Shown here: one piece after another, positions 1-32,545 of the stretch | Layout: the number at the start of each line of letters is the position of its first letter | How positions within the stretch are numbered: the first letter of the stretch is position 1 | Assembly: GCA_002256025.1 (NCBI GenBank) | Contig: NKIB01000410.1 | Coordinates: forward strand, 1-32,804 | Length of the DNA: 32,804 nucleotides | Direction of reading: 5' to 3' | Origin: Asterionella formosa | Taxonomy: Eukaryota | Program-made: the position numbers and the translations under genes | Notes under the pieces: model-generated | Database searches by the model: none | What the model was told of the DNA's origin: nothing | The model's input: the letters and a program-made list of their open reading frames with translations, nothing else

Positions 1-274
1 CTTGCATTCTTGGCTTCCATGCCGATGTGTTGATTGGTTCTAATGACTTGAGTGCGCTTCCAATGTCGCTGCCATAATCAAACACTTTCTTGATATGATT
101 GATGAGGTACTCAGTAGTAGTCTCATAGTCAGATGCCTGCTTCGATGATCCGAGGTAGTAGTTATAGTCATTGACTGACTTCTTGATGGAGTGAGAAGCA
201 ATATTGCTCCCTCCCTTGGCTTGAAACTTGCCCTTGGCTTGAGCCTTCTTGGTAAACTTTCCTTTGCCACTCAT
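1..274 (-). CDS. Gag N-terminus of a Ty1/copia-like (diatom CoDi-type) LTR retrotransposon, running off the left edge
   Basis: Not in the ORF track because it has no stop in the window. ATG at 274 gives an open frame: MSGKGKFTKKAQAKG...KKSVNDYNYYLGSSKQASDYETTTEYLINHIKKVFDYGSDIGSALKSLEPINTSAWKPRMQ. This resembles diatom copia Gag N-termini as I recall them, and it lies just inside an LTR. Confidence 0.75.
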   Translation of the reverse strand, partial: MSGKGKFTKKAQAKGKFQAKGGSNIASHSIKKSVNDYNYYLGSSKQASDYETTTEYLINHIKKVFDYGSDIGSALKSLEPINTSAWKPRMQ

Positions 275-392
275 GATGCGCCCTGTGCGACTTCTTCAGA
301 CTCTGGATGGTCTGGTACCCTCAGATCTTGTCTCCGGACTCTCAATTGTCCGCTTGTTGTTGATTGTGGTATCACGGCTCTTCCTGGCCGGC

Positions 393-407
393 TAATTCTA
401 TTAAAAC
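393..407 (-). promoter_or_regulatory. Primer-binding-site position, self-complementary to LTR nt 530-544
   Basis: Minus-strand GTTTTAATAGAATTA directly abuts the LTR end. It lacks the TGG of a tRNA PBS and is the exact reverse complement of minus-strand 544-530. Confidence 0.65.
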
Positions 408-673
408 TGTTGAAATTGCGTCCCGAAGCACTCTATGCTTTCTTGTATCCTGTAAGGACACGTCAGGGACCAAATAGGCTGTAGATATAACAACGATGTC
501 TCCGTGATCGATTGTAATCGTTCCTAAGCGTTTTAATAGAATTATGGGTTTTTATTGTTGGCGTAGATTGTTTTCGAATTCTCTGGTACCATATTCTTTC
601 TTGATTCATTCGATTCAATATGTAGTAGGTAATTTATACCGGGATTTTCTTTCCTAAAATATTTTCTCCAACA
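408..673 (-). mobile_element. 5' LTR (266 bp) of the Copia-like retrotransposon
   Basis: On the minus strand it starts TGTTGGAG (673) and ends TTTCAACA (408), giving TGTTG...CAACA termini. It contains TATAAA-like (~633-638) and AATAAA (~551-556) signals and sits upstream of gag. The second LTR is outside the window. Confidence 0.75.
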
Positions 674-710
674 TCATCAACCAGAAAAACATTTCTGGAC
701 GTTGGGACTC

Positions 711-1361
711 ATGAGCTCAGTAAGTGGTAATAATGATGACATTGTGGTTTCACCCAAAACCTCCCTTCCTTTCAATTTTGGTCAAGCATCGACGCGTGAT
801 CAAATCATTTACACTTGTGAACGTCCTGGAGGAGATCTACCAAACGTAAGCAAGATCAAACCGGAACCTTGTAAGAACCATATTGAATTCTTAAGGGAGA
901 ATGGAATAGCAATCGTCTTGATTCTTTTGGATGATAACGAAATGGATCATGTGAGTTTGAATGCCTTACAGATATATCGCTGCTTGTTCCATTAATGTGC
1001 CATACATGCATGGTGCATGCATGCGTTCACTCACTTTTTGCTTTCGCAGTATGAAGAACCAGGTCTTCTCAAAATGTACGAGGAGGCTGGAATTAGGTGG
1101 CATCGTCAACCAATGGGAAACGAGAAGGCAGCCACTAACATTATGAAGCTTCTTCAGGACTGTAAGGAACAGGACGAGAAAGTTGTTGTGCACTGTACTC
1201 ATGGTATGGGTCGTTCGGGTCGAGTTGCTGCTGGGTGGCTGGTCACCTTTTATGGTTTATCTCCTGAAGCAGCCACTCAGGAAGTGATGGAATATGCAGA
1301 GAAACATGGCATTCAGCGATTGGGATCAGTCCGTCAGCTTGTGAATTGGTTGAAGGTGTGA
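711..1361 (+). CDS. Small dual-specificity/tyrosine (CX5R) phosphatase; exons 711-950 and 1050-1361, 183 aa
   Basis: Active-site VVVHCTHGMGRSG and an N-terminal RPG motif. The GTGAGT...CTCAC...CAG intron (951-1049) joins the two track ORFs in frame (MDH|YEEP). Confidence 0.88.
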
Positions 1362-1764
1362 CGACCAGCACAACTCTTCCATCAGGTAATTGTGCAACTA
1401 TACAGATCACATATATATCTTGTGATGAATATACTAGACGATATAGTCGACACTGAAAAGTTATGTAGTGAGTCATAGCCGTACCACTATGGCTTCAGCC
1501 AAGTTCAACTCTTTTGCTTGTTTTCCTAGTGGTGTGAATAAATACTTAGCCTTATTTCTCAAGGATTCCATTGTTCTGATGGCTTGTTGGATTTGCTAAA
1601 TGTTATCCACTTTCTTGACTTAGTCCGACATGTATCCACTCAAGAGCATTACCTTCTCCTTGGTGAGCTTGAGGTATGCCTTTGCCTTCTTGAAGTCGTT
1701 TTCTACGTAAATCGGTAATCACTTCCTTCCTTCCATCCAATAGCTCGTCCATTTCATATTTCAT

Positions 1765-2376
1765 TTATTTGCTGCTCGATGAAAAAGCCAATTTGAGAAA
1801 TTCGTTCAGGTCAGCAGAGGCAGTCTTTGATCCACCAACACATCCGCTTTCACTCTTTTTCTGAGCAGCTTGACCGATCGCAATTACATCGTTCTTCACC
1901 TTCTTGGCTGCTTCCTTGACTGCCTCGGGACTTTTGGATGCAACTTGATTCATGGTGATTGCCAAGGTTCCGAGTGGACCTGTTAATACACCTTGGATTT
2001 GCGACCACTTTTTCTGTTCGGCGAGTGACGGAATTAAAGCCAGTTTCGAGTTGGCTTCCATAAGATGTTTTAGGACAACCTCTAGGTCGTCACCTTGGTA
2101 AAGAAACTTTGACGGGTCAATGGACTTATTCTTCTCCTCCAAGAATTCAATATAATTTGGAAGCTCCAAGTTACTTGAATCGCCATACTTGGCAACGACA
2201 GGTTGCACAATTTGGGACCATCCCGAAGCAAGGATTGATGCCGCCACAAATGATCGTCGAGTCTGAGGAATCATGTCAACACGACTCTTCGTTCGCTGAC
2301 CGTTAAATGCATTGGATCGATTACAATGCAGTGCGATGAGGATCAAGACGACAGCGGAAATCTTTCTCATCATCAT
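1765..2376 (-). CDS. PsbQ-like thylakoid lumen protein
   Basis: Signal peptide with an ASAFAP-like cleavage (SNA-F), then a twin-arginine lumen signal (RRSFVAAS...PVVA). The helical mature domain contains KKWSQIQGVLTGPLGTL, as in PsbQ-like proteins. Confidence 0.65.
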   Translation of the reverse strand: MMMRKISAVVLILIALHCNRSNAFNGQRTKSRVDMIPQTRRSFVAASILASGWSQIVQPVVAKYGDSSNLELPNYIEFLEEKNKSIDPSKFLYQGDDLEVVLKHLMEANSKLALIPSLAEQKKWSQIQGVLTGPLGTLAITMNQVASKSPEAVKEAAKKVKNDVIAIGQAAQKKSESGCVGGSKTASADLNEFLKLAFSSSSK

Positions 2377-2460
2377 GCTGCCCTCTGTTTTGTTATTTGT
2401 TACATGTGTGAGATATGAGACTATTTGATAGTACCGGTACCCCGGTATACGTGAGGCCGG

Positions 2461-2475
2461 CTAGGGTTAGGGTTA
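2461..2475 (-). repeat. Short telomere-type repeat / telo-box-like motif upstream of the PsbQ-like gene
   Basis: CTAGGGTTAGGGTTA on plus, about 85-100 nt before the ATG at 2376. Confidence 0.35.
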
Positions 2476-2545
2476 TGAGGCAATCAATTTTGAGATGTAT
2501 TCCCTACTTTGAATTCCAGCTTCATGTTAATTCACTTATGGACGA

Positions 2546-4177
2546 CTACAACTTAGCCACAGTAGATACGGAATTCATAATGTATGGATAACAAACCGAC
2601 GTAAGAAAGTCGTCAAGCTCGTCCTTGGTCAACATTCTACCAACAAGATGACCAGCCAACCTCCACCTTCCCTTTGCTATTCCTTTGGTCTGTTTGCAAA
2701 CTTCATCTTGTACAATTAGCCAAATTCTCTCGGTTGAAATGACTAGCCCATCATCCTGAGTAGATAGGCCATGATGGACCCATTGCCAAATCTGAGCTCT
2801 ACTTATCTCAGCCGTGGCTGCATCCTCCATCGCATTGTGAAGCGGGATGCAGCCTATTCCACGAAGCCAAGCCTCTGTGTAGGCGAGCACAATTGCGACA
2901 CCACGCTCCAGTCCCGCGCAAGTAATCGACTGACCGTGGGGGATCTCAGGAAGCCTCAATAAATCTGCTTCTGTGACTTTGGAGCCATCACTGCCTGGTT
3001 TAGAGCCAATCTGGTTTGCAGTTTTCATGTGCCTGTCAAACACGTTTTTGGCAACAGAGACTAGTGCTGGATGAGCAACCCATGTACCATCATGTCCAGC
3101 CAACACTTCACGCAGCTTGTCTTGCTCGACACTCTTCATTGCAGCATCATTCTTTTGAGGGTCGTCCTTGACTGGTATGGCTGCCGACATTCCACCCATT
3201 GCAAAGGTCCCTCGCTTATGGCAAATGTAGATAAGGCGTTTCACATAAGCCTCCATCAACGGTGTCGTCATGGTCAAGAAGGAACGATCGGGGGCAATCA
3301 TATTCTTCTGAAGCTTGAACTTTTTGATAAACGAGAATAGGTAATCCCATCGACCACAGTTGAGACCGAGGGAATGATCTCGAAGCTCATAGAGAATCTC
3401 CTCCATTTCAAAGGCAGCAGTAATTGTCTCGAGAAGGACAGTGGCGCGGATGGTTCCAACCGGAACTCCCAGGTACTGTTGAGCAGCTACGAAAACACTG
3501 TTCCACAACCTAGCTTCTTCGTGACTCTCCAACTTTGGAACATAAAAATAAGGCCCACTGCCTTTGGCAAGAAGATTGTAAACGTTGTGAAAGAAATAAA
3601 GCCCAAAGTCAACCAAAGAGCCCGACGCGCTTCGGCCGTTGACAATAATATGACCTTCGTCCAAGTGCCATCCTCTTGGACGAACAAAGAGGACCGATGT
3701 AGTTTTGTTCGGAGTGTACACCTTGCCATTTTCTCGGTTGGTGAAAGTGATTGTACCGTTCACTGCGTCTCTGAGATTGAGTTGACCATCCATGAGATTG
3801 TTCCAAGTTGGACTTGTCGAATCTTCAAAGTCGGCCATGTAGACACTTGCTCCACTATTCAATCCGTTGATTACCATCTTGCGATCCACGGGACCCGTAA
3901 TCTCAACCCGTCGATCTTGGACATTGGCGGGAATCGGAGCGCACTTCCAGTCTGGGTCTTTGGCCGCAGGCGAGTCAGCGAGAAAGCTGGGAAGTTCCCC
4001 TGCATCGTACTCCACAGCTCGTGCCTTGCGTTTGTCCAGCAATAGACGACGAGTATCGTCAAACTTGGCGCAGAGAAAACCAACAAACTGGAGAGCCTCC
4101 GGAGTGAGAATTTCCTTGGCCGTCGCGTCGATTGTTGCCGCCACTTTCACGTGAACTTCAGGGGATCGAAACTCCAT
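2546..4177 (-). CDS. MLS1: Malate synthase A (glyoxylate cycle), intronless, 543 aa, PTS1 -AKL
   Basis: Motifs RRVEITGP, MADFEDS, VRPRGWHL, LNCGRWDYLFS, GHDGTWVAHP and MEDAATAEISRAQIWQW. The first ATG is at 4177 (MEFRSP), and the protein ends in AKL. Confidence 0.96.
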   Translation of the reverse strand: MEFRSPEVHVKVAATIDATAKEILTPEALQFVGFLCAKFDDTRRLLLDKRKARAVEYDAGELPSFLADSPAAKDPDWKCAPIPANVQDRRVEITGPVDRKMVINGLNSGASVYMADFEDSTSPTWNNLMDGQLNLRDAVNGTITFTNRENGKVYTPNKTTSVLFVRPRGWHLDEGHIIVNGRSASGSLVDFGLYFFHNVYNLLAKGSGPYFYVPKLESHEEARLWNSVFVAAQQYLGVPVGTIRATVLLETITAAFEMEEILYELRDHSLGLNCGRWDYLFSFIKKFKLQKNMIAPDRSFLTMTTPLMEAYVKRLIYICHKRGTFAMGGMSAAIPVKDDPQKNDAAMKSVEQDKLREVLAGHDGTWVAHPALVSVAKNVFDRHMKTANQIGSKPGSDGSKVTEADLLRLPEIPHGQSITCAGLERGVAIVLAYTEAWLRGIGCIPLHNAMEDAATAEISRAQIWQWVHHGLSTQDDGLVISTERIWLIVQDEVCKQTKGIAKGRWRLAGHLVGRMLTKDELDDFLTSVCYPYIMNSVSTVAKL

Positions 4178-4732
4178 GGTCTCTCGTCGTTGCAAAGGAT
4201 CCTTTTCGGTACTGCCGAATTGATAAGTGTATCCCCAACATACTATGTGGGAGCAAATGGATGATGTGAATCGTTCGCTCTTTGATGACAACCGTGATCA
4301 TTCCAGCATACCGGTACATATATTCATATGTGTGAACATACACTGGAAAGCAGCTCGTCGACAAAGTGGTGTCAACGCGACATCAGATCGGTTCATGTAC
4401 CGGAATGCTCGTATGATCTTAACAAACAAGTGAGCTCATTTACGTACATCGTGCCCTGGTACTCCTACCAGGTACCAGGTACCTGGTACTACATACTCGT
4501 TGTTATGACTCACAATCGACTGAATCGAACGAATCGACTTTGATGTACCAAGCTCTCATTAACCACACATTATTACTCCAACTATAATCAGCCAGATGAT
4601 ATAAGCAATTCAGAAGACCAATAGTTTGAGTTGAATGGTTAATGGTTGATCCTGAACTTAAAATATATATTGAAAGCACGTCTTGCAAGGGCTGGCATGC
4701 TTCCATTGAGGCTTGGCTTGTGCTCTTTACCC

Positions 4733-4832
4733 TTGCTGCTTGAGTTAAAAGTGAATAGGCATTTGCTGCTTGAGTTAAAAGTGAATAGGCATTTGGTGCT
4801 TAAGTTGAAAGTAAATAAGAGTTTGGTACTTA
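4733..4832. repeat. 30-bp tandem repeat (TTGCTGCTTGAGTTAAAAGTGAATAGGCAT), about 3 copies
   Basis: Two identical units plus one degenerate unit. Related ~30-bp units occur at 5569-5650. Confidence 0.8.
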
Positions 4833-5823
4833 TTGCATAGGTAACTTATTTCCAAAGTTACCTAAACCTAGGATTTCATGTTGACTACTTAGAATGCAGC
4901 AAGAAGCACAAACTCAATTATTCTCATCTTCGAATCATTTTTTATTGTGTACGTGTTTAAAATTTACTCTGAGTATGGTGCCTTGGTGGTGGAAACAATG
5001 ATATGATGATGACAATCACATGATCCATATATTCTAAACAGATAAATAGTGATTTATAAATCAAGCTTTTGGGGGGCCTGATCCTTTGTAGACAACGGAG
5101 CATTGTAGAACGGCGTATATGTACGAAAAAGACGCGTTTCAATGCAATGACGAGGCATCGAGATATCGTTTCTGTTATTGAGCGCACTTGTGGTGGGTTT
5201 CCGATTTTACTGTTTCTGCTATATCTAAACGAAATGTACTAGCTACAATTAAAATCGTGTACTATACGCTAGCGACTATTTGATTCTATCTGTTTGACTA
5301 GTGTACAATGACAAATGAGGGGGAAGATGGCATGATCATTATCGACAAATCGTCAGCGATATGTTGTAGTTGTTGCTGACATAATTACATTTTTCATTAA
5401 ATTTTTGTCGTCCTACATCACAGTTGATGATTGGCAGTCAACGTTTAGGTTTTCCTTACATAGAAAAATTTACTTCTGAACACCGTCCTCGCATTGTTAG
5501 CTCCCCTACATCCGGCAACCAGTGGGCTGAAAATACATCCCCTAACCCAAATGTAATCAGAAGTTCGTCTGCTGCTTAAGATTAAGTAAGATTGACGTTT
5601 GCTGCTTAAGTTTAAGCAAGATGACAGTTTCCCGCTTAAGTTAAAAGTTTTCTCGGTGGGAAGGCCGGCGTGCATCATGCATTTCACCACGCCGGCCCAT
5701 CCCAAATGACGTTAAAGTATATCGCCTTTAGTTTTTGCAGAAATTAATAAACGTGCTGTTATCAAATATTCGATGTGTACAAGCTCGTTTTCCGTATGTT
5801 CCACCGACCAGGTTTGATAGATA

Positions 5824-7743
5824 CTCCCTCTGGGCGAAAAAAATTGCGTTGATTTGCAGCGAATCAAGTGCCGGAAAGCATCAGCTTATTTTAGGACGGA
5901 TTACGTGGAAAACATACCATTTTTCTTCTCTCTTGAAAAATTCCCGTATTTGAGGAGTTACATATCTGGTACTCCAGTAGTAGACAGGAACATTACTCTG
6001 TTTCTGTAATCAAATTATTAGAATCTAAATAAATTACCGTAAAGCATGGGGTCCTGTATCCCCCCCCCCCTTATTCATGTACCGGTACATCTGGTGCAAC
6101 ACTCCCAAATAATTTATGTCTACTGAAAAATAACAGCATGTTATTGTATTCTATTTGTTAATATATTTATGTCTATTAACTATAATTGTATTATTACTGG
6201 TCACCATCAAGAAATGGCAATCAACAACAAGACGAGCAACGCCAATGACATTTGTGATGATAATATCCTTGGCCTAAGAGTTATTTCAAGAAGTTGCAAG
6301 CTTGCTGTGGTGCGATTATCAAGATGAATGCTACAGGCTGAGACATTGCTGGCCTTGATGTTGTCAGCATGCCGGAAGCGTTTATAGAATCACTTTTGTC
6401 TGCTGCCTGATGATGCAGAAATGTTTCGTGCATGTAATATTTTCTGGTCCAATAATCATATAAGTGATGTTGTTGGCTTTTATAAATATCCATCACGATC
6501 CAAATTGTAGAACCTACACAAATTAATACAGTTGTAGGACTACTAGGTACAAACGTGTACACACTCTAGAAATTACTATTGATGTCATCACGAAACTTGG
6601 GCGCACGAGTGCACCAAAACATGAAATTCTATTGATCATAGAAACCGTTTGAACCGACAACAACAAATCTTTTAATGTTGCTATTAACGTTTTAGACTAT
6701 GGAGAAAACGGTGGTGAAGTTGGTTTGCTCATAATGATTGGAGATCAAAAATTGGCCAATATCTTTTACCCCTCTATAAGTAAAATCAGTTTTGGCTTTG
6801 TACATTGAGGGATACAGGACGCCAGGTTTACAGTAATCGAAACCAGTTGTTGAACATATAGAGATATACAATATAGTCTATGCATGTAAATAAATTAAGA
6901 AATGACATTTGATAGACTCATGGAAAGCAAGGGTCTGCTGTCTGACAACAATTTAGGAAGTTTTTGATGATGTGGTGGTTGGAAGGGAGCTGGATGGACG
7001 AGAGATTCTTGGGTTAGGTGCATGCAAAAATGGGAGGACACGCAAGTTCCAACACTATTCATGTGGAAGTGTGATCACTTTTTTTTATGTATGCAGCTTG
7101 GACTGCCTCAATCAACCCATCCATATCATGGTTGGCCTCCTCCACTGAATCCCATTGGCCATTCTGGGCGGAGTGCCTGAAAAATTGAGAGCATTGATGT
7201 TCATGTTTGGTAAGTTTTCTGTTTGCCCTGTTAACTTTATATTCCTTCCATGCCATCCTCAGCCGATGATTCTACAAATATGCAATAATTGCTTCCAAAA
7301 TGGGCACTCATATTGTCATGTTGTATGTAAATAGTCTTGTTCTTCCCTTCATTGTTGAGCAGCCATTTATCCTGGATAGCTGGTAAAACATTAATAATAG
7401 TCATGTCTGCGTTTTTCTGCTTTGTAACTGACAAATCTGTTGCATTTGCTGTCAGCCGATCTTGAATATCATATACCAGTCAAGGTAAAAGTAACCCACT
7501 ATGCTGACAAGCGAAATTCAAGTAAATTCAATAGCCCTAAACCATGCACATGTATTGCTATTTTTTGTCATAGACTACTCTGCTAAATTTACTGATCTAA
7601 CCAATGTACCCATTACCTGCATCGCCTCACGTAGAAAATGCATATTGCTTCTACTGCAGCATTCTTAAAAGGCTGTGGAACGTGCCGGATTAGTCGCTGA
7701 GCGTGTTGCAACTGCCGGTATACATGAACGGACACGGAGGGAG
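5824..7743 (-). mobile_element. Degenerate DD39D (Stowaway-related) mariner element
   Basis: TA|CTCCCTCTG at 5822-5832 and ACGGAGGGAG|TA at 7734-7745 give Stowaway-type termini with a TA TSD. They enclose a transposase relic. That the two ends belong to one element is inferred. Confidence 0.55.
7070..7440 (-). pseudogene. Mariner DD39D transposase fragment, frameshifted
   Basis: SVTK...VLPAIQDKW...TIYIQHDNMSAH (cf. IQQDNARPH), followed in another frame by QWDSVEEANHDMDGLIEAVQAAY. Confidence 0.75.
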
Positions 7744-17376: not shown

Positions 17377-17755
17377 CAAACAAAAGAGCAACGGCACTCC
17401 CTCTATTCCGGTATAGTTGCAAGACACTCAGCGACTAACCCGGCTTGATCCACATCCTTGAAAGAAGCCTCTGTAGAAGAAATATAAAATTTCCACATGA
17501 GACGACGCAGGCTAATGGTATACCGGTTAGATTCGTATGTTTAGGCCGACTATCCAAGTGGGGTTAAGGCAGGACACATGCCCTTATGACGGTTGCAACG
17601 AATGCTGAGCTGAGCAAAGGGTTCGTGCGACCTGCAATGAAATCAGCGCCGACTGTAATGGCGGCATCGAGGACGATGTTACCAAAAGGATTCGACTTGC
17701 CTGGCAAGTTAATTTTTCTTCTCTGCTCCGTTGCTAAGCGGTGAGAACAAGGCTG

Positions 17756-17860
17756 ATCAACAATCAACAATCAACAATCAACAATCAACAATCAACAATC
17801 AACAATCAACAATCAACAATCAACAATCAACAATCAACAATCAACAATCAACAATCAACA
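17756..17860. repeat. Perfect heptanucleotide repeat (ATCAACA)15
   Basis: 105 nt counted directly. Confidence 0.95.
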
Positions 17861-19863
17861 ACAACAAATGTCCGAAACACTCATCAAAAAACGAAGAATT
17901 TAGGTGCATATATTTCATAATTTATTGCCACAATTCTGCAAGATGGAAGTGTTTCTACCATTTGCGGAGTCTGTACCACTTCCGTTGGTGTGCCGCACTG
18001 GTCCCTTTGTGTCGCCTTTCTTCGAGCACCCATAGTTGCATTACGCTCAGTGACTAACCCGGCTCAATCAAGGAAGCCCTCTGTTAAAGCAATATGCATT
18101 TTCGGCGTGAGACGATGCAAGCAATGGCTGGATGCATCATGAAACTACATTGGGTAGCCATCATAGCTACCGGTACAAAATAATTCTGGCTACCAGTACA
18201 ACATAATTTTAGCTTAAGTAAAATGTTCTATATAAATAATATACAGATGAATAAAGTTTATGTACACATGCATCCACGATCTCGTTGTTGTCGTTGTTGC
18301 ATTCATTCATGATGAACATGAAATCGAAATCCATTGTGCAGCGATGGGTGTGAAATCAATGTTGTGTCTTCATTGCAACTACTATATGATTTTTTAGACA
18401 TTCCTGTACAGTTTCAACTCCAGCTTGCCCACTATCAAGCTCAAGAGTGTGAGACATTGGTCATGATGTAGGCATGGATCTCCATTCCCAACAAGAAATA
18501 GTTCATATATAACAAAACAAATTGTGTCGTCCTGTGCCTCTTCCGGTGTTTAATAGTAGCGCTACTCATGGAGGAAAGAAAGCTATTTGAAGTGGCACGG
18601 AGGGATGTTCTATTGTTGAGTAAAGCAACAGAATAAAAACAACATGATGGATGTGATTATAACATGCCAATCCAGGCGCAAAATATTATATACCATAGGT
18701 TTAGGGTTCATGCTGATACCAGGCCTACAGGGTTTACCCAGTGGCCCAAAAATTGCATCCAGCCATATGGTTATGTCGGTTAGGTCAGTTTAGGCGAGAT
18801 AACGCTAAATAGCTGTATAAATGTGCATCATTTTGCTTTGAAACAATTTTGCTGCAGTGTGTCGTGTAGTCTACCGGTAGTCATGATTGTTGAACTATGA
18901 TATTTAGTGAAAGTATGTCTGTTTGCAGTACTGGTACTGGTACCAAGGTACTGTTTCGTTGCCGTGGAGGTGATACCAGTATTCTGAAGGAACTGCTATG
19001 TAGTTCAAGGTACTTACTCGCTCATCTCAAGTGCAATGTTAAAAGTACCTACAGGTTGCGGTCATTTTGCTCAAATTTACAATTTAATATCAGATAAAGA
19101 TAGCTAAATCTTTAGTTTAAGCAAAATTACCGCAGCTTGCCTGTTCTCCGGCTGACACATTCTTCGTAAGTAACGTAAATGACTACTTGAATGTTATGTA
19201 CAGGTATGATTCGTACTCCCTCAACTCAAATGCAATGTAAAGTACCTGATGGTGCTCTACATATCGTAACAGATTCGTGAATCAAGTAAATGACCAGTTG
19301 AATGAATGACCATGAATCACTAGGGAGAAACAACTGTGACTTTGCCTGGTAGTGCTCTACTGTAGGAAGATAGCTTGAATGGATGATTTCTGAAGGTGAA
19401 AATGATACTTAGCATAGAGTCATTTTTGCGTATGTACCAGGTACGCACAATCGACAAATCAAAATTGCCACTTGATACGATACATCGTAAATGAAATATG
19501 TCCTTTCATTGACATAATATGTGGTTTGATTTAAGGGTACCAGGTAACCTGGTACCAGTTACCGGTATGGAGTAAAACTGTATCAATGGAATCCCATATT
19601 CGGGCCAAACGACTAAATACCGGAACATCGATGTCGCGAAGTCGGATTAGTGATCCCGCGGTATTCAAATTTAACGACAGAGGAACTCTAGGCACTCCTA
19701 TTTCGCATAAGTCACATAACGATACAGGCGATTGATAGCTAACTATAGCATCCATCATGAAAACATGTCAACAACCCTGATCAATCAATGAAAATTCTCA
19801 TTCGCGAAAATTATACAGTATTCTCGAATTTCTACTCATTTCCGAACAACCTATCGATCAGCC

Positions 19864-26241: not shown

Positions 26242-26671
26242 AATTGCTGAATGACACAAAGAGAAAGTGAAGAACTGAGAACGTGATGTACAGTGCTGAG
26301 AAATCCTGTCCATCAGGTTAAATCAATTTATTAGTGACGTACTGAGAGAGTGACATACTGAAAAGGTGATGAGTTGCATTTCAGTTTTACCGGACACTTC
26401 GACATTTACGTAGGTCAGATATGAACAGGCTACATACAATATATTCCACACACGAGTGTACCACAGGACGGAATCCAGAATCCGTTTGTATGCCATACTT
26501 GATGTCGAAATCAACAGAACGACATCATAAATAATATGTATTATTTTTATTTCTATCATATACATGTCTATATTATGTTCAAGGAGCATGGTGATATGGT
26601 ACATTACCTGGAACCTGGTGGTACCAGCACCAGTAACAGGTGTATGCCAGGGGCAACTCACCACAAAGTAC

Positions 26672-28400: not shown

Positions 28401-28816
28401 CCAAGAATGTGCAAATGAGCAATAAAAATGTGATAATGAATGTGCACGCAAAAATTGTAGTAGTTAATACAATGTTTATCATGTACTATACTTGTACTCA
28501 TAGAAATGGTATATGTCATACGTTAGAGTGATGTTGATTGATGCAATTCAAATTAATAGTTGAAGCAACGTATGTATCGCACTTGTTCCTGGGCGCGCTC
28601 TGATAATAAAAAATAATTATATATCATGTGTATAACACAAATCGTTGTACCCATAACCCCAAAATTTGGTCAACACAAACACAAATTTTTACAGTTATAA
28701 ATAACAGTGCATTATATAAAAAGATGTTTAGGCATGAATGACTATATAGAATTTCCCGGAATATTTCAAGACTTGCTTGCTCATACTCAAAATGGCTTGC
28801 TCTTGCCAAAATAGGT

Positions 28817-31656: not shown

Positions 31657-32039
31657 AATGTCATCATCAGGAGATGAGATGAAAGTCTACATGGTCAGTG
31701 ACCAACGATGATGAATATATAGAACTTCTGCATATAATGAACAAGAGGCGGCGTAGCATACAAGAGGATGCATTGCTCGATATGAAAATTTAAGTTAAAT
31801 ATATATCTAATGTCAGAAAAGTAATCTAAAATATCTCTATTATCAGAGCGTATCAGAGCGCAAGGACAATATTATGTAGCAGATCACCAGAATAATTTGT
31901 GTTATAATACACACATGATATAATAATTTTTTATTATCAGAGCGCGCCCACAACTGACAGAAAAGGAACATTTTCGCTCAATCAGGATTCCATTTAAAAA
32001 TCACAGAATCCTGGTACTTTGTCCGGTAGAACTGAACTG

Positions 32040-32545
32040 ATGTTCAGTAGTGAGAAAATCACGTCACCAATTGATATAAATATATTAGTGACGTACACAG
32101 TACTGAGAAACCAGATGTTCGCAGAAGAACGCGCGACCAGAATTTCGCAAGATATTTAGAAACTATTCATCGAGGTCTGTAGACGAGAAACATAATGAAT
32201 TTTCCACATAGCAAGGAAGTACAACGTTTCCCGTACCTCCCAATATGCAAACTGTAGTGTATGAAGCTATAAACTGAGGAAGTGACGTTTGGAATAATGC
32301 AAACTGCACTGCATGAAGCTTTGACCACTTATGAAGTGACGTATAGAACTGAGAAAATCACGTCCACCACTCTAAATAAATTTGTCAGTGACGTATAATA
32401 TGTCCAACAGCTTACCGGTGCAGGAAATTACAGGTGACTTGCTACTAGGTACTGAGAAAGTGACGTACAGTACCTGGTCCTGAGAAATAACGTCCACCAC
32501 CTATAATAAATTTAAAAGTGACGTACTGAAAAAGGGACGTATAGT
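32040..32545 (+). repeat. Degenerate ACTGAGAAA/GTGACGTA repeat cluster, also present at 26273-26370
   Basis: Units of TGAGAAAATCACGTC(C)ACCA...TAAAT...AGTGACGTA at about 32050, 32349 and 32480, in the same orientation as the copy at 26295-26345. Confidence 0.75.

Follow-up and report, generated by a model that had tools for sequence, protein, structure and literature searches.

In the retrotransposon Tf1, the first 11 nucleotides of the mRNA pair with the primer-binding site (PBS), and RNase H cuts between nucleotides 11 and 12, which releases the primer (PMC7175516). Tf1/Tf2 and the Tf1/sushi group, which are Ty3/gypsy chromoviruses, have an LTR-derived RNA of their own that is complementary to a PBS behind the LTR, and they use no tRNA; self-priming has been demonstrated there experimentally. 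To our knowledge, bench proof of self-priming exists for Tf1 only, and the cases proposed outside Tf1/sushi are predictions from single sequences. Among Copia elements, self-priming was predicted for the plant TAR lineage by Neumann et al. 2019, who asked for an LTR complement of at least 10 bp starting 0–5 bp after the LTR and cited an earlier proposal for Houba and Osr-1 (PMC6317226). TAR elements have an LTR-internal complement of the post-LTR site and are without a tRNA-type PBS (PMC6317226). The fungal GalEa Copia elements are also without a tRNA PBS; at its position they have a self-complementary feature called the Conserved Hairpin Site, a local palindrome that includes the last A of the LTR (PMC5445492). 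Copia-type elements of diatoms include the CoDi lineages. By a term search, the main text of the CoDi paper (Maumus et al. 2009; PMC2806351) mentions no primer binding site, tRNA, priming or PPT, and its lone 'PBS' is a buffer. The diatom passages of PMC3601003 mention these organisms only in passing. In the open literature, to which the search was confined, we found no report of self-priming in diatom elements.

We analysed a stretch of DNA of 32,804 nucleotides from the diatom Asterionella formosa (contig NKIB01000410.1), called the window below. Its bases 1–673 carry, on the minus strand, the 5' end of an LTR retrotransposon. We consider it likely that this high-copy diatom element of the Ty1/copia type primes its reverse transcription in the manner of Tf1, with its own RNA instead of a tRNA. 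Self-priming as such is not categorically new, since it has been demonstrated in Tf1 and predicted for the plant Copia lineage TAR. Its presence in an abundant diatom Copia clade is well supported and apparently unreported. In this case the prediction finds support in the covariation seen among eight diverged families of a diatom element of very high abundance.

The element differs from Tf1 in several respects. Its reverse transcriptase (RT) is of the Copia type (RVT_2), whereas that of Tf1 is of the Gypsy type. The duplex between the LTR and the PBS is 15–17 nt long and in the consensus includes the LTR-terminal A, while that of Tf1 is 11 nt long. Tf1 RNA forms a 'pretzel' of three duplexes (bioRxiv 10.1101/2022.12.06.519325). 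In the MFE folds of eight families, which are predictions and make this a weak comparison, we found no such three-duplex structure; instead, one stem closes a multibranch R-U5 domain. Compared with TAR, the host is a diatom and not a land plant, and we liken the two by the complementarity criterion. In GalEa, no LTR-internal complement was found by its authors (PMC5445492), whereas here the partner lies 65–136 nt upstream inside the LTR. The likeness to CoDi is one of host and RT type; Gag relatives of our element are named from Fragilaria crotonensis.

The features of the element are collected in Table 1. The element extends past window base 1, and its 3' end lies beyond the window. A repeat search and a sequence search of the window found no second LTR copy and no solo LTR elsewhere in it. 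For comparison, metagenome contigs were scanned with an alignment of Gag N-termini, which gave 17 loci (L001–L017), and Logan contigs of three RNA runs (X13, X6 and X7) and one DNA run (X1) were aligned to window positions 1–1000.

Table 1. Features of the retrotransposon 5' end in the window and of the adjoining target site.
Feature	Position	Strand	Remarks
5' LTR	408..673	-	266 bp; TGTTG (669–673) ... CAACA (408–412); both edges supported by relatives or contigs
Invariant CA adjoining arm 1, initiator-like; candidate transcription start	545..546	-	putative start; alignment A2
Arm 1, candidate self-primer TAATTCTATTAAAAC	530..544	-	exact complement of 393–407; covaries with arm 2; contains ATTAAA
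Copy-specific substitution: sense G, family consensus T	529..529	-	consensus T pairs with the LTR-terminal A
Conserved CTTAGG right after arm 1; possible context of the RNase H cut and start of the remaining template	523..528	-	putative role
Conserved structured U5-proximal segment, CCTATTTGG...GCAATTTCAACA, with covarying stem GGTCCC/GGGAC	408..478	-	alignment A2, MFE folds
Arm 2, candidate primer-binding site GTTTTAATAGAATTA, adjoining the LTR end, without TGG	393..407	-	sequence read, covariation
Leader (5' UTR), 118 nt, with small hairpin CGGC...GCCG after the PBS	275..392	-	sequence, folding
gag start, 91 aa, ATG at 274, truncated by the window edge	2..274	-	ORF open to window base 2
Putative half of a 5-bp target-site duplication	674..678	.	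position alone

Three of the loci (L001, L002 and L007) belong to the window's own family, with 95–98% identity, and their alignments to the window all begin precisely at 673. Upstream of the equivalent position, the pol stop codon and a polypurine tract ending in ...CAGCAGGAGTG are present in L001 and L002, and L007 has unrelated flank. The tract ...CAGCAGGAGTG adjoins TGTTGG in L001, L002, L005, L006, L009, L010, L011, L012 and L014, and in L015 the polypurine tract precedes TGTCG. That this tract abuts the 3' LTR is known from the relatives, the window copy being without that end. The inner edge of the LTR had been placed at 408 in the preliminary description. Across the three RNA runs, 16 contigs match from 408 upward and diverge below it (six in X13, six in X6 and four in X7). 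Elsewhere in these runs, diverging contig ends number one and two at 407 and are single at 403, 406 and 415. The alignment starts at 673 and the loose ends at 408 thus bear out both edges of the first reading, and the LTR is a TG...CA terminal repeat with a defined outer and inner edge.

Seven loci (L001, L002, L005, L006, L009, L011 and L014) show the pol end, the polypurine tract, one LTR, the PBS and gag, in this order. L014 repeats 103 nt at both of its ends, and L009 repeats about 377 nt. Such single-LTR contigs might reflect two LTRs that were collapsed into one during assembly, or else tandem copies or circles with one LTR.

The 91-aa Gag start matches 39 proteins at E ≤0.001 among 81 candidates. 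Eight of these 39 matches are polyproteins of 1,600–1,649 aa with PF07727 (RVT_2), three being named from Fragilaria crotonensis; the 91-aa Gag start itself has no Pfam family. One of the polyproteins, P0003 (1,624 aa), is 96% identical to the window's 91 aa and carries RVT_2 at residues 1142–1372 (44.4 bits against a cut-off of 31.6), so the Copia-type RT is assigned through P0003, the RT itself lying outside the window. In P0003 there is no Pfam match to rve, and SH3_retrovirus at 814–867 gives a weak signal below the cut-off (E 0.039). As a lead, the language-model look-alikes of P0003 residues 600–900 include rve, SH3_retrovirus and gag_pre-integrs clusters, and the residues D655, D712 and E743 are invariant and fit a D,D,E core by eye. 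From the look-alike clusters and this triad, an integrase ahead of the RT is likely. The assignment of the element to Copia, made in the first reading, is supported by RVT_2 in near-identical full-length polyproteins and by the integrase-like look-alikes upstream of the RT. Since the RT is RVT_2 and the polyprotein is not that of a Ty3/gypsy chromovirus, the element would work like Tf1 but is not a member of Tf1/sushi.

In P0003 and its relatives of about 1,600 aa, RVT_2 is the only Pfam model recognised, with no protease, rve or RNase H model; the lineage is therefore very divergent. Between their integrase-like part and the RT, these proteins also contain a long insert of acidic, low-complexity sequence. 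Sequence searches of the PDB with P0003 and with the polyprotein profile returned nothing relevant, a nucleophosmin match being at chance level. Viral contigs scanned with the Gag alignment gave 48 pattern matches, none of which was confirmed.

The observation from which the analysis started was a 15-mer directly after the LTR, GTTTTAATAGAATTA, with an exact 15-nt complement inside the LTR (544–530). Using a script check, we confirmed that plus-strand 393–407 (TAATTCTATTAAAAC) is the exact reverse complement of 530–544. By the operational definition of a self-primer (an LTR complement of at least 10 bp, starting 0–5 bp after the LTR, without a tRNA-type PBS), the window copy has a complement of 15 nt at 0 bp. 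ARAGORN found no tRNA genes in the window, and Rfam gave no matches in window positions 1–1000. The chance expectation was obtained by shuffling the LTR 20,000 times and recording the longest LTR complement of a segment starting 0–5 nt after the LTR end. A complement of at least 15 nt appeared in 0 of the 20,000 shuffled LTRs, one of 14 nt appeared once, and at least 8 nt were reached in 7.7%.

The length of 15 nt given for the duplex holds for the window copy, where the match extends on neither side, but not for the family. At position 529, a letter other than that of the window makes up 1,440,995 of the 1,459,628 depth in the DNA run X1 (116 contigs) and all of the depth in the RNA runs X13, X6 and X7. 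L001, L002 and L007 have T at the equivalent position. The G at 529 is therefore private to the window copy, and the duplex of the family consensus is 16 nt long, overlapping the LTR end by one base, the LTR-terminal A.

Covariation of the PBS with the LTR segment had been set beforehand as a test of the reading. In each of the 17 loci, inverted repeats of at least 10 nt were sought up to 900 nt upstream of gag, and the rest was inspected by hand. Both the LTR interior and the post-LTR site are visible in 14 of the 18 sequences (the window and the 17 loci), and these copies were taken as assessable. It turned out that 12 of the 14 have a perfect duplex of 15–17 nt at the homologous place (the window, L001, L002, L007, L004, L005, L006, L009, L011, L012, L014 and L016), made of eight different sequence pairs. 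The Gag identity of these relatives to the window is 44–92%. Within the window's family, the duplex is 15 nt in the window and 16 nt in L001, L002 and L007. It measures 16 nt in L004 (ATTATCTCAATAAACT / AGTTTATTGAGATAAT), in L005 and L006 (ATACTTACAATAAACT) and in L016, 15 nt in L009 and L014, and 17 nt in L011. In L012, 15 nt are paired; arm 1 belongs there to the 3' LTR and arm 2 follows the 5' LTR, both on one contig. The upstream scans returned three 10-mers as the only other inverted repeats.

In the other two assessable copies the duplex was not seen. No complementarity was found in L013, a decayed copy whose gag has three in-frame stops. L015 has an 8-nt match only, which is at the chance level of the shuffles, and its LTR is incomplete on the contig. 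Four loci (L003, L008, L010 and L017) stand outside the assessable set. Among them, L003 begins inside the LTR past arm 1 and has the same arm 2, and L010 has a complete 3' LTR with the layout CA + 15 nt + CTAAGG on a contig without a 5' LTR or PBS.

Nine sequences were aligned with MAFFT (alignment A2), giving a helix of 17 pairs. In this helix, 95.8% of the cells pair, against 31–50% when the partners are slid by 1–3 columns. Changes on both sides are present in 12 of the 17 pairs and changes on one side only in none, and there are no G:U pairs. The observed covariation values were reached by 0 of 500 shuffles on four of five measures and by 3 of 500 on the fifth. RNAalifold recovers the same helix of arm 1 and arm 2 unaided, and the MFE folds pair the whole of arm 1 with arm 2 in seven of the eight families and 16 of its 17 nt in L011. 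The stem between the arms covaries as well (GGTCCC/GGGAC in the window, GACCCC/GGGGT in L004, GCCCTC/GAGGT in L005), and the small hairpin beside the PBS has one-sided changes. The PBS and the LTR segment thus co-vary while staying complementary. Covariation across eight diverged families makes the duplex clearly functional.

The ends of the duplex are conserved too. The CA that precedes or opens arm 1 (about columns 4–6) is invariant in all nine sequences of A2, and the last T of arm 1, the partner of the LTR-terminal A, is present in eight of the nine. Arm 1 is followed by CTTAGG, CTAAGA, CTAGGA or CTTAGT in 8 of 8 families. In the family consensus, arm 2 starts with the A of the LTR-terminal CAACA. 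TGG within the first 5 nt of arm 2 occurs in no family. Several arms consist of A and T only, and such arms are unlike segments of tRNA.

We know of no mechanism other than self-priming that places a perfect LTR-internal complement exactly at the position of the PBS, and self-priming is therefore the most likely reading here. The suggestion of the preliminary description that this lineage may self-prime gains support from an anchored perfect duplex that is kept with a different sequence across relatives. According to our model, transcription would start at or beside the invariant CA at 546–545. The first 15–16 nt of the RNA (arm 1, 544–530) would fold onto arm 2 (407–393, joined in the family consensus by the last A of the LTR), and this pairing would close the entire R-U5 region into one structured domain. 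By analogy with Tf1, the RNase H of the element may cut at the 3' end of arm 1, before CTTAGG, and synthesis from the freed 3'-OH would then proceed across U5 and R. This cut may take place in the context of the conserved CTTAGG, and the terminal T of arm 1 would serve as template for the last A of the LTR's CA end, which integrase requires. Copying of the primer by the plus strand would rewrite the progeny PBS from arm 1. The PBSs of retroviruses are copied from the tRNA. Rewriting from arm 1 would explain why the arms are perfectly Watson-Crick paired in every family despite drift, and a complete lack of G:U pairs and mismatches in eight diverged families is expected if the progeny PBS is copied from the primer in each cycle. 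If selection alone maintained the stem, wobble pairs would be tolerated, and the small neighbouring hairpin does have one-sided changes.

The family is polymorphic and very abundant. In the DNA run X1, 17,302 contigs align to positions 1–680 at a likeness of at least 90%, and their summed depth is about 0.3–2.1 million, compared with 863 on the unique flank. From this very high abundance, the self-priming design seems to work.

The depth of the RNA runs rises inside the LTR. Starts, ends and strand of the RNA are not readable from Logan contigs, and the following values are contig depths. In U3 (545–612), the depth of the RNA runs is 90–384. In X6, it is 89.7 at 555 and 3,518 at 529 (six contigs), and a contig of depth 2,365 ends at 536, inside arm 1. 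X13 has 169 at 529, 1,182 at 516, 3,853 at 506 and 18,763 at 488, and X7 has 341 at 500 and 27,891 at 488. The DNA run X1 is flat across the LTR, with a summed depth of about 0.9–1.5 million at 488–587. Contig depth thus places the 5' boundary of the abundant RNA between 555 and 488. The rise is a weak hint in favour of a start at arm 1: a start at 545/544 fits, and one at about 500–530 is also compatible with the contig depth. The TATA-like motif nearest to arm 1 (GGTATAAATTACC) is found some 90 nt upstream of it, a long distance for a start directed by TATA. With T/C and T/A behind it, the CA that borders arm 1 resembles the initiator consensus.

A start downstream of arm 1 would call for a different form of self-priming, one not from the 5' end. 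Arm 1 of the 3' LTR (U3), on the same or a co-packaged RNA, would then be cut and used as the primer, in a 5'-3' cyclisation or in a trans variant. Every full-length RNA contains arm 1 in its 3' LTR, and the single contig of L012 shows the two arms on different LTRs. The depth in X13 and X7 rises mainly at about 529–488, downstream of arm 1. However, the high-depth contigs of X6 cover 529 and reach 536, and the invariant initiator-like CA lies exactly at the 5' edge of arm 1 in every aligned sequence. Moreover, the region 489–529 differs among subfamilies (loose ends and an insertion at 488), and this variation by itself can stop contigs from aligning there. We therefore regard priming from the 3' LTR as unlikely and keep to priming by the 5' end of the transcript. 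The contig ends of L012 were also considered as transcript ends; this was dropped, as they show no overlap and are indistinguishable from assembly breaks.

Downstream of the rise, the summed RNA depth is 8,474–146,388 over 409–476, 120–5,140 in 375–408 and about 100–1,030 across the leader and gag. RNA-library depth is about 100 times higher in the U5-proximal LTR (409–510) than in U3, the leader or gag, and the DNA run is flat there. The RNA excess over 409–476 could stem from related families that have only the conserved U5 part in common, from transcription reading out of the LTR into its flanks, as the loose ends at 408 might indicate, or from a short product of R-U5. Contigs that bridge the LTR and the leader occur at lower depth (192–434 in X6 with depth 260; 192–432 in X7 with depth 1,031). 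Contig cover is absent at 341–374 in X13 and at 953–1000 in the three RNA runs, which carries no weight. The conserved CTGACG in U5 had by eye a hammerhead-like appearance; this reading was rejected, since the core does not fit and Rfam found nothing in the window.

It is also improbable that the duplex serves a different function as a conserved long-range RNA stem (packaging, dimerisation, translation or polyadenylation control) and that a separate primer is used. The duplex does close a conserved, structured R-U5 domain. In addition, AATAAA or ATTAAA lies inside arm 1 in four of the eight families, which would allow the stem to hide a poly(A) signal. Against this, there is no other candidate PBS after the LTR, and arm 2 begins exactly at the LTR end in 8 of 8 families. 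The perfect pairing, set against the one-sided changes of the adjacent hairpin, fits template copying better than structural selection alone.

We consider it very unlikely that a tRNA, a tRNA half or another host small RNA is the primer and that the LTR copy is incidental. Copia lineages such as Osser and Bianca are known to be primed by half-tRNAs (PMC6317226). Here, however, eight arm 2 sequences would require eight host RNAs, each of them mirrored in the element's own LTR, and arm 2 never has the TGG and is in several cases pure A/T; the tRNA and Rfam searches described above were also empty. A chance inverted repeat in AT-rich DNA, for which the AT-rich arms could speak, is already refuted by the shuffles and by the recurrence of the duplex at the same anchored place in eight families.

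It is possible, though we hold it as doubtful, that an entire clade of Copia elements in diatoms gave up tRNA priming. Each family would then have its own self-primer of 15–17 nt, reaching from the start-site CA to a terminal U that templates the LTR-terminal A, and its PBS would be rewritten in every cycle. If so, self-priming would have arisen a third time, independently of Tf1/sushi and plant TAR, or the clade would have retained the hairpin priming that was proposed for the ancestral LTR element (PMC3601003). The approximately 100-fold RNA excess over 409–500 could in that case be a short R-U5 product. The diatom element offers a clean system for asking how often LTR elements have escaped dependence on host tRNA, whether the primer acts as template for each new PBS, and what makes RNase H cut where it does (between the conserved T and CTTAGG). 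There is a consequence for annotation as well, since this abundant diatom family will be missed or misjudged by any LTR finder that requires a tRNA PBS.

The neighbouring genes in the window encode malate synthase, PsbQ, CENP-S and a dual-specificity phosphatase, a set that points to a photosynthetic eukaryote. The phosphatase gene (plus strand, ATG at 711, DSPc on 1017–1361) begins 37 nt from the outer edge of the LTR and is divergent from the element. In X13, an RNA contig of 1,406 nt begins at 644, within the LTR (644–1361, plus strand). Contigs from each of the three RNA runs depart from the window sequence at 950 and continue with that of about 1049, which indicates that an intron at about 951–1047 is spliced out. 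Other repeats are present farther along the window. A microsatellite with the 7-nt unit ATCAACA, about 18 units long, occupies 17742–17889. An inverted repeat of 44 nt (28590–28633 and 31907–31950; 89% complementary, arms 3.3 kb apart) possibly represents the ends of a DNA transposon. Two further inverted-repeat pairs link 7610–7713 with 17415–18127, about 10 kb apart (52 nt at 83% and 41 nt at 88%), which suggests an inverted duplicated segment. Dispersed direct repeats of 59–65 nt with 66–75% identity, ending in TAGTGACGTAC or AAGTGACGTAC, are located at 26284–26357, 32038–32096 and 32468–32541.
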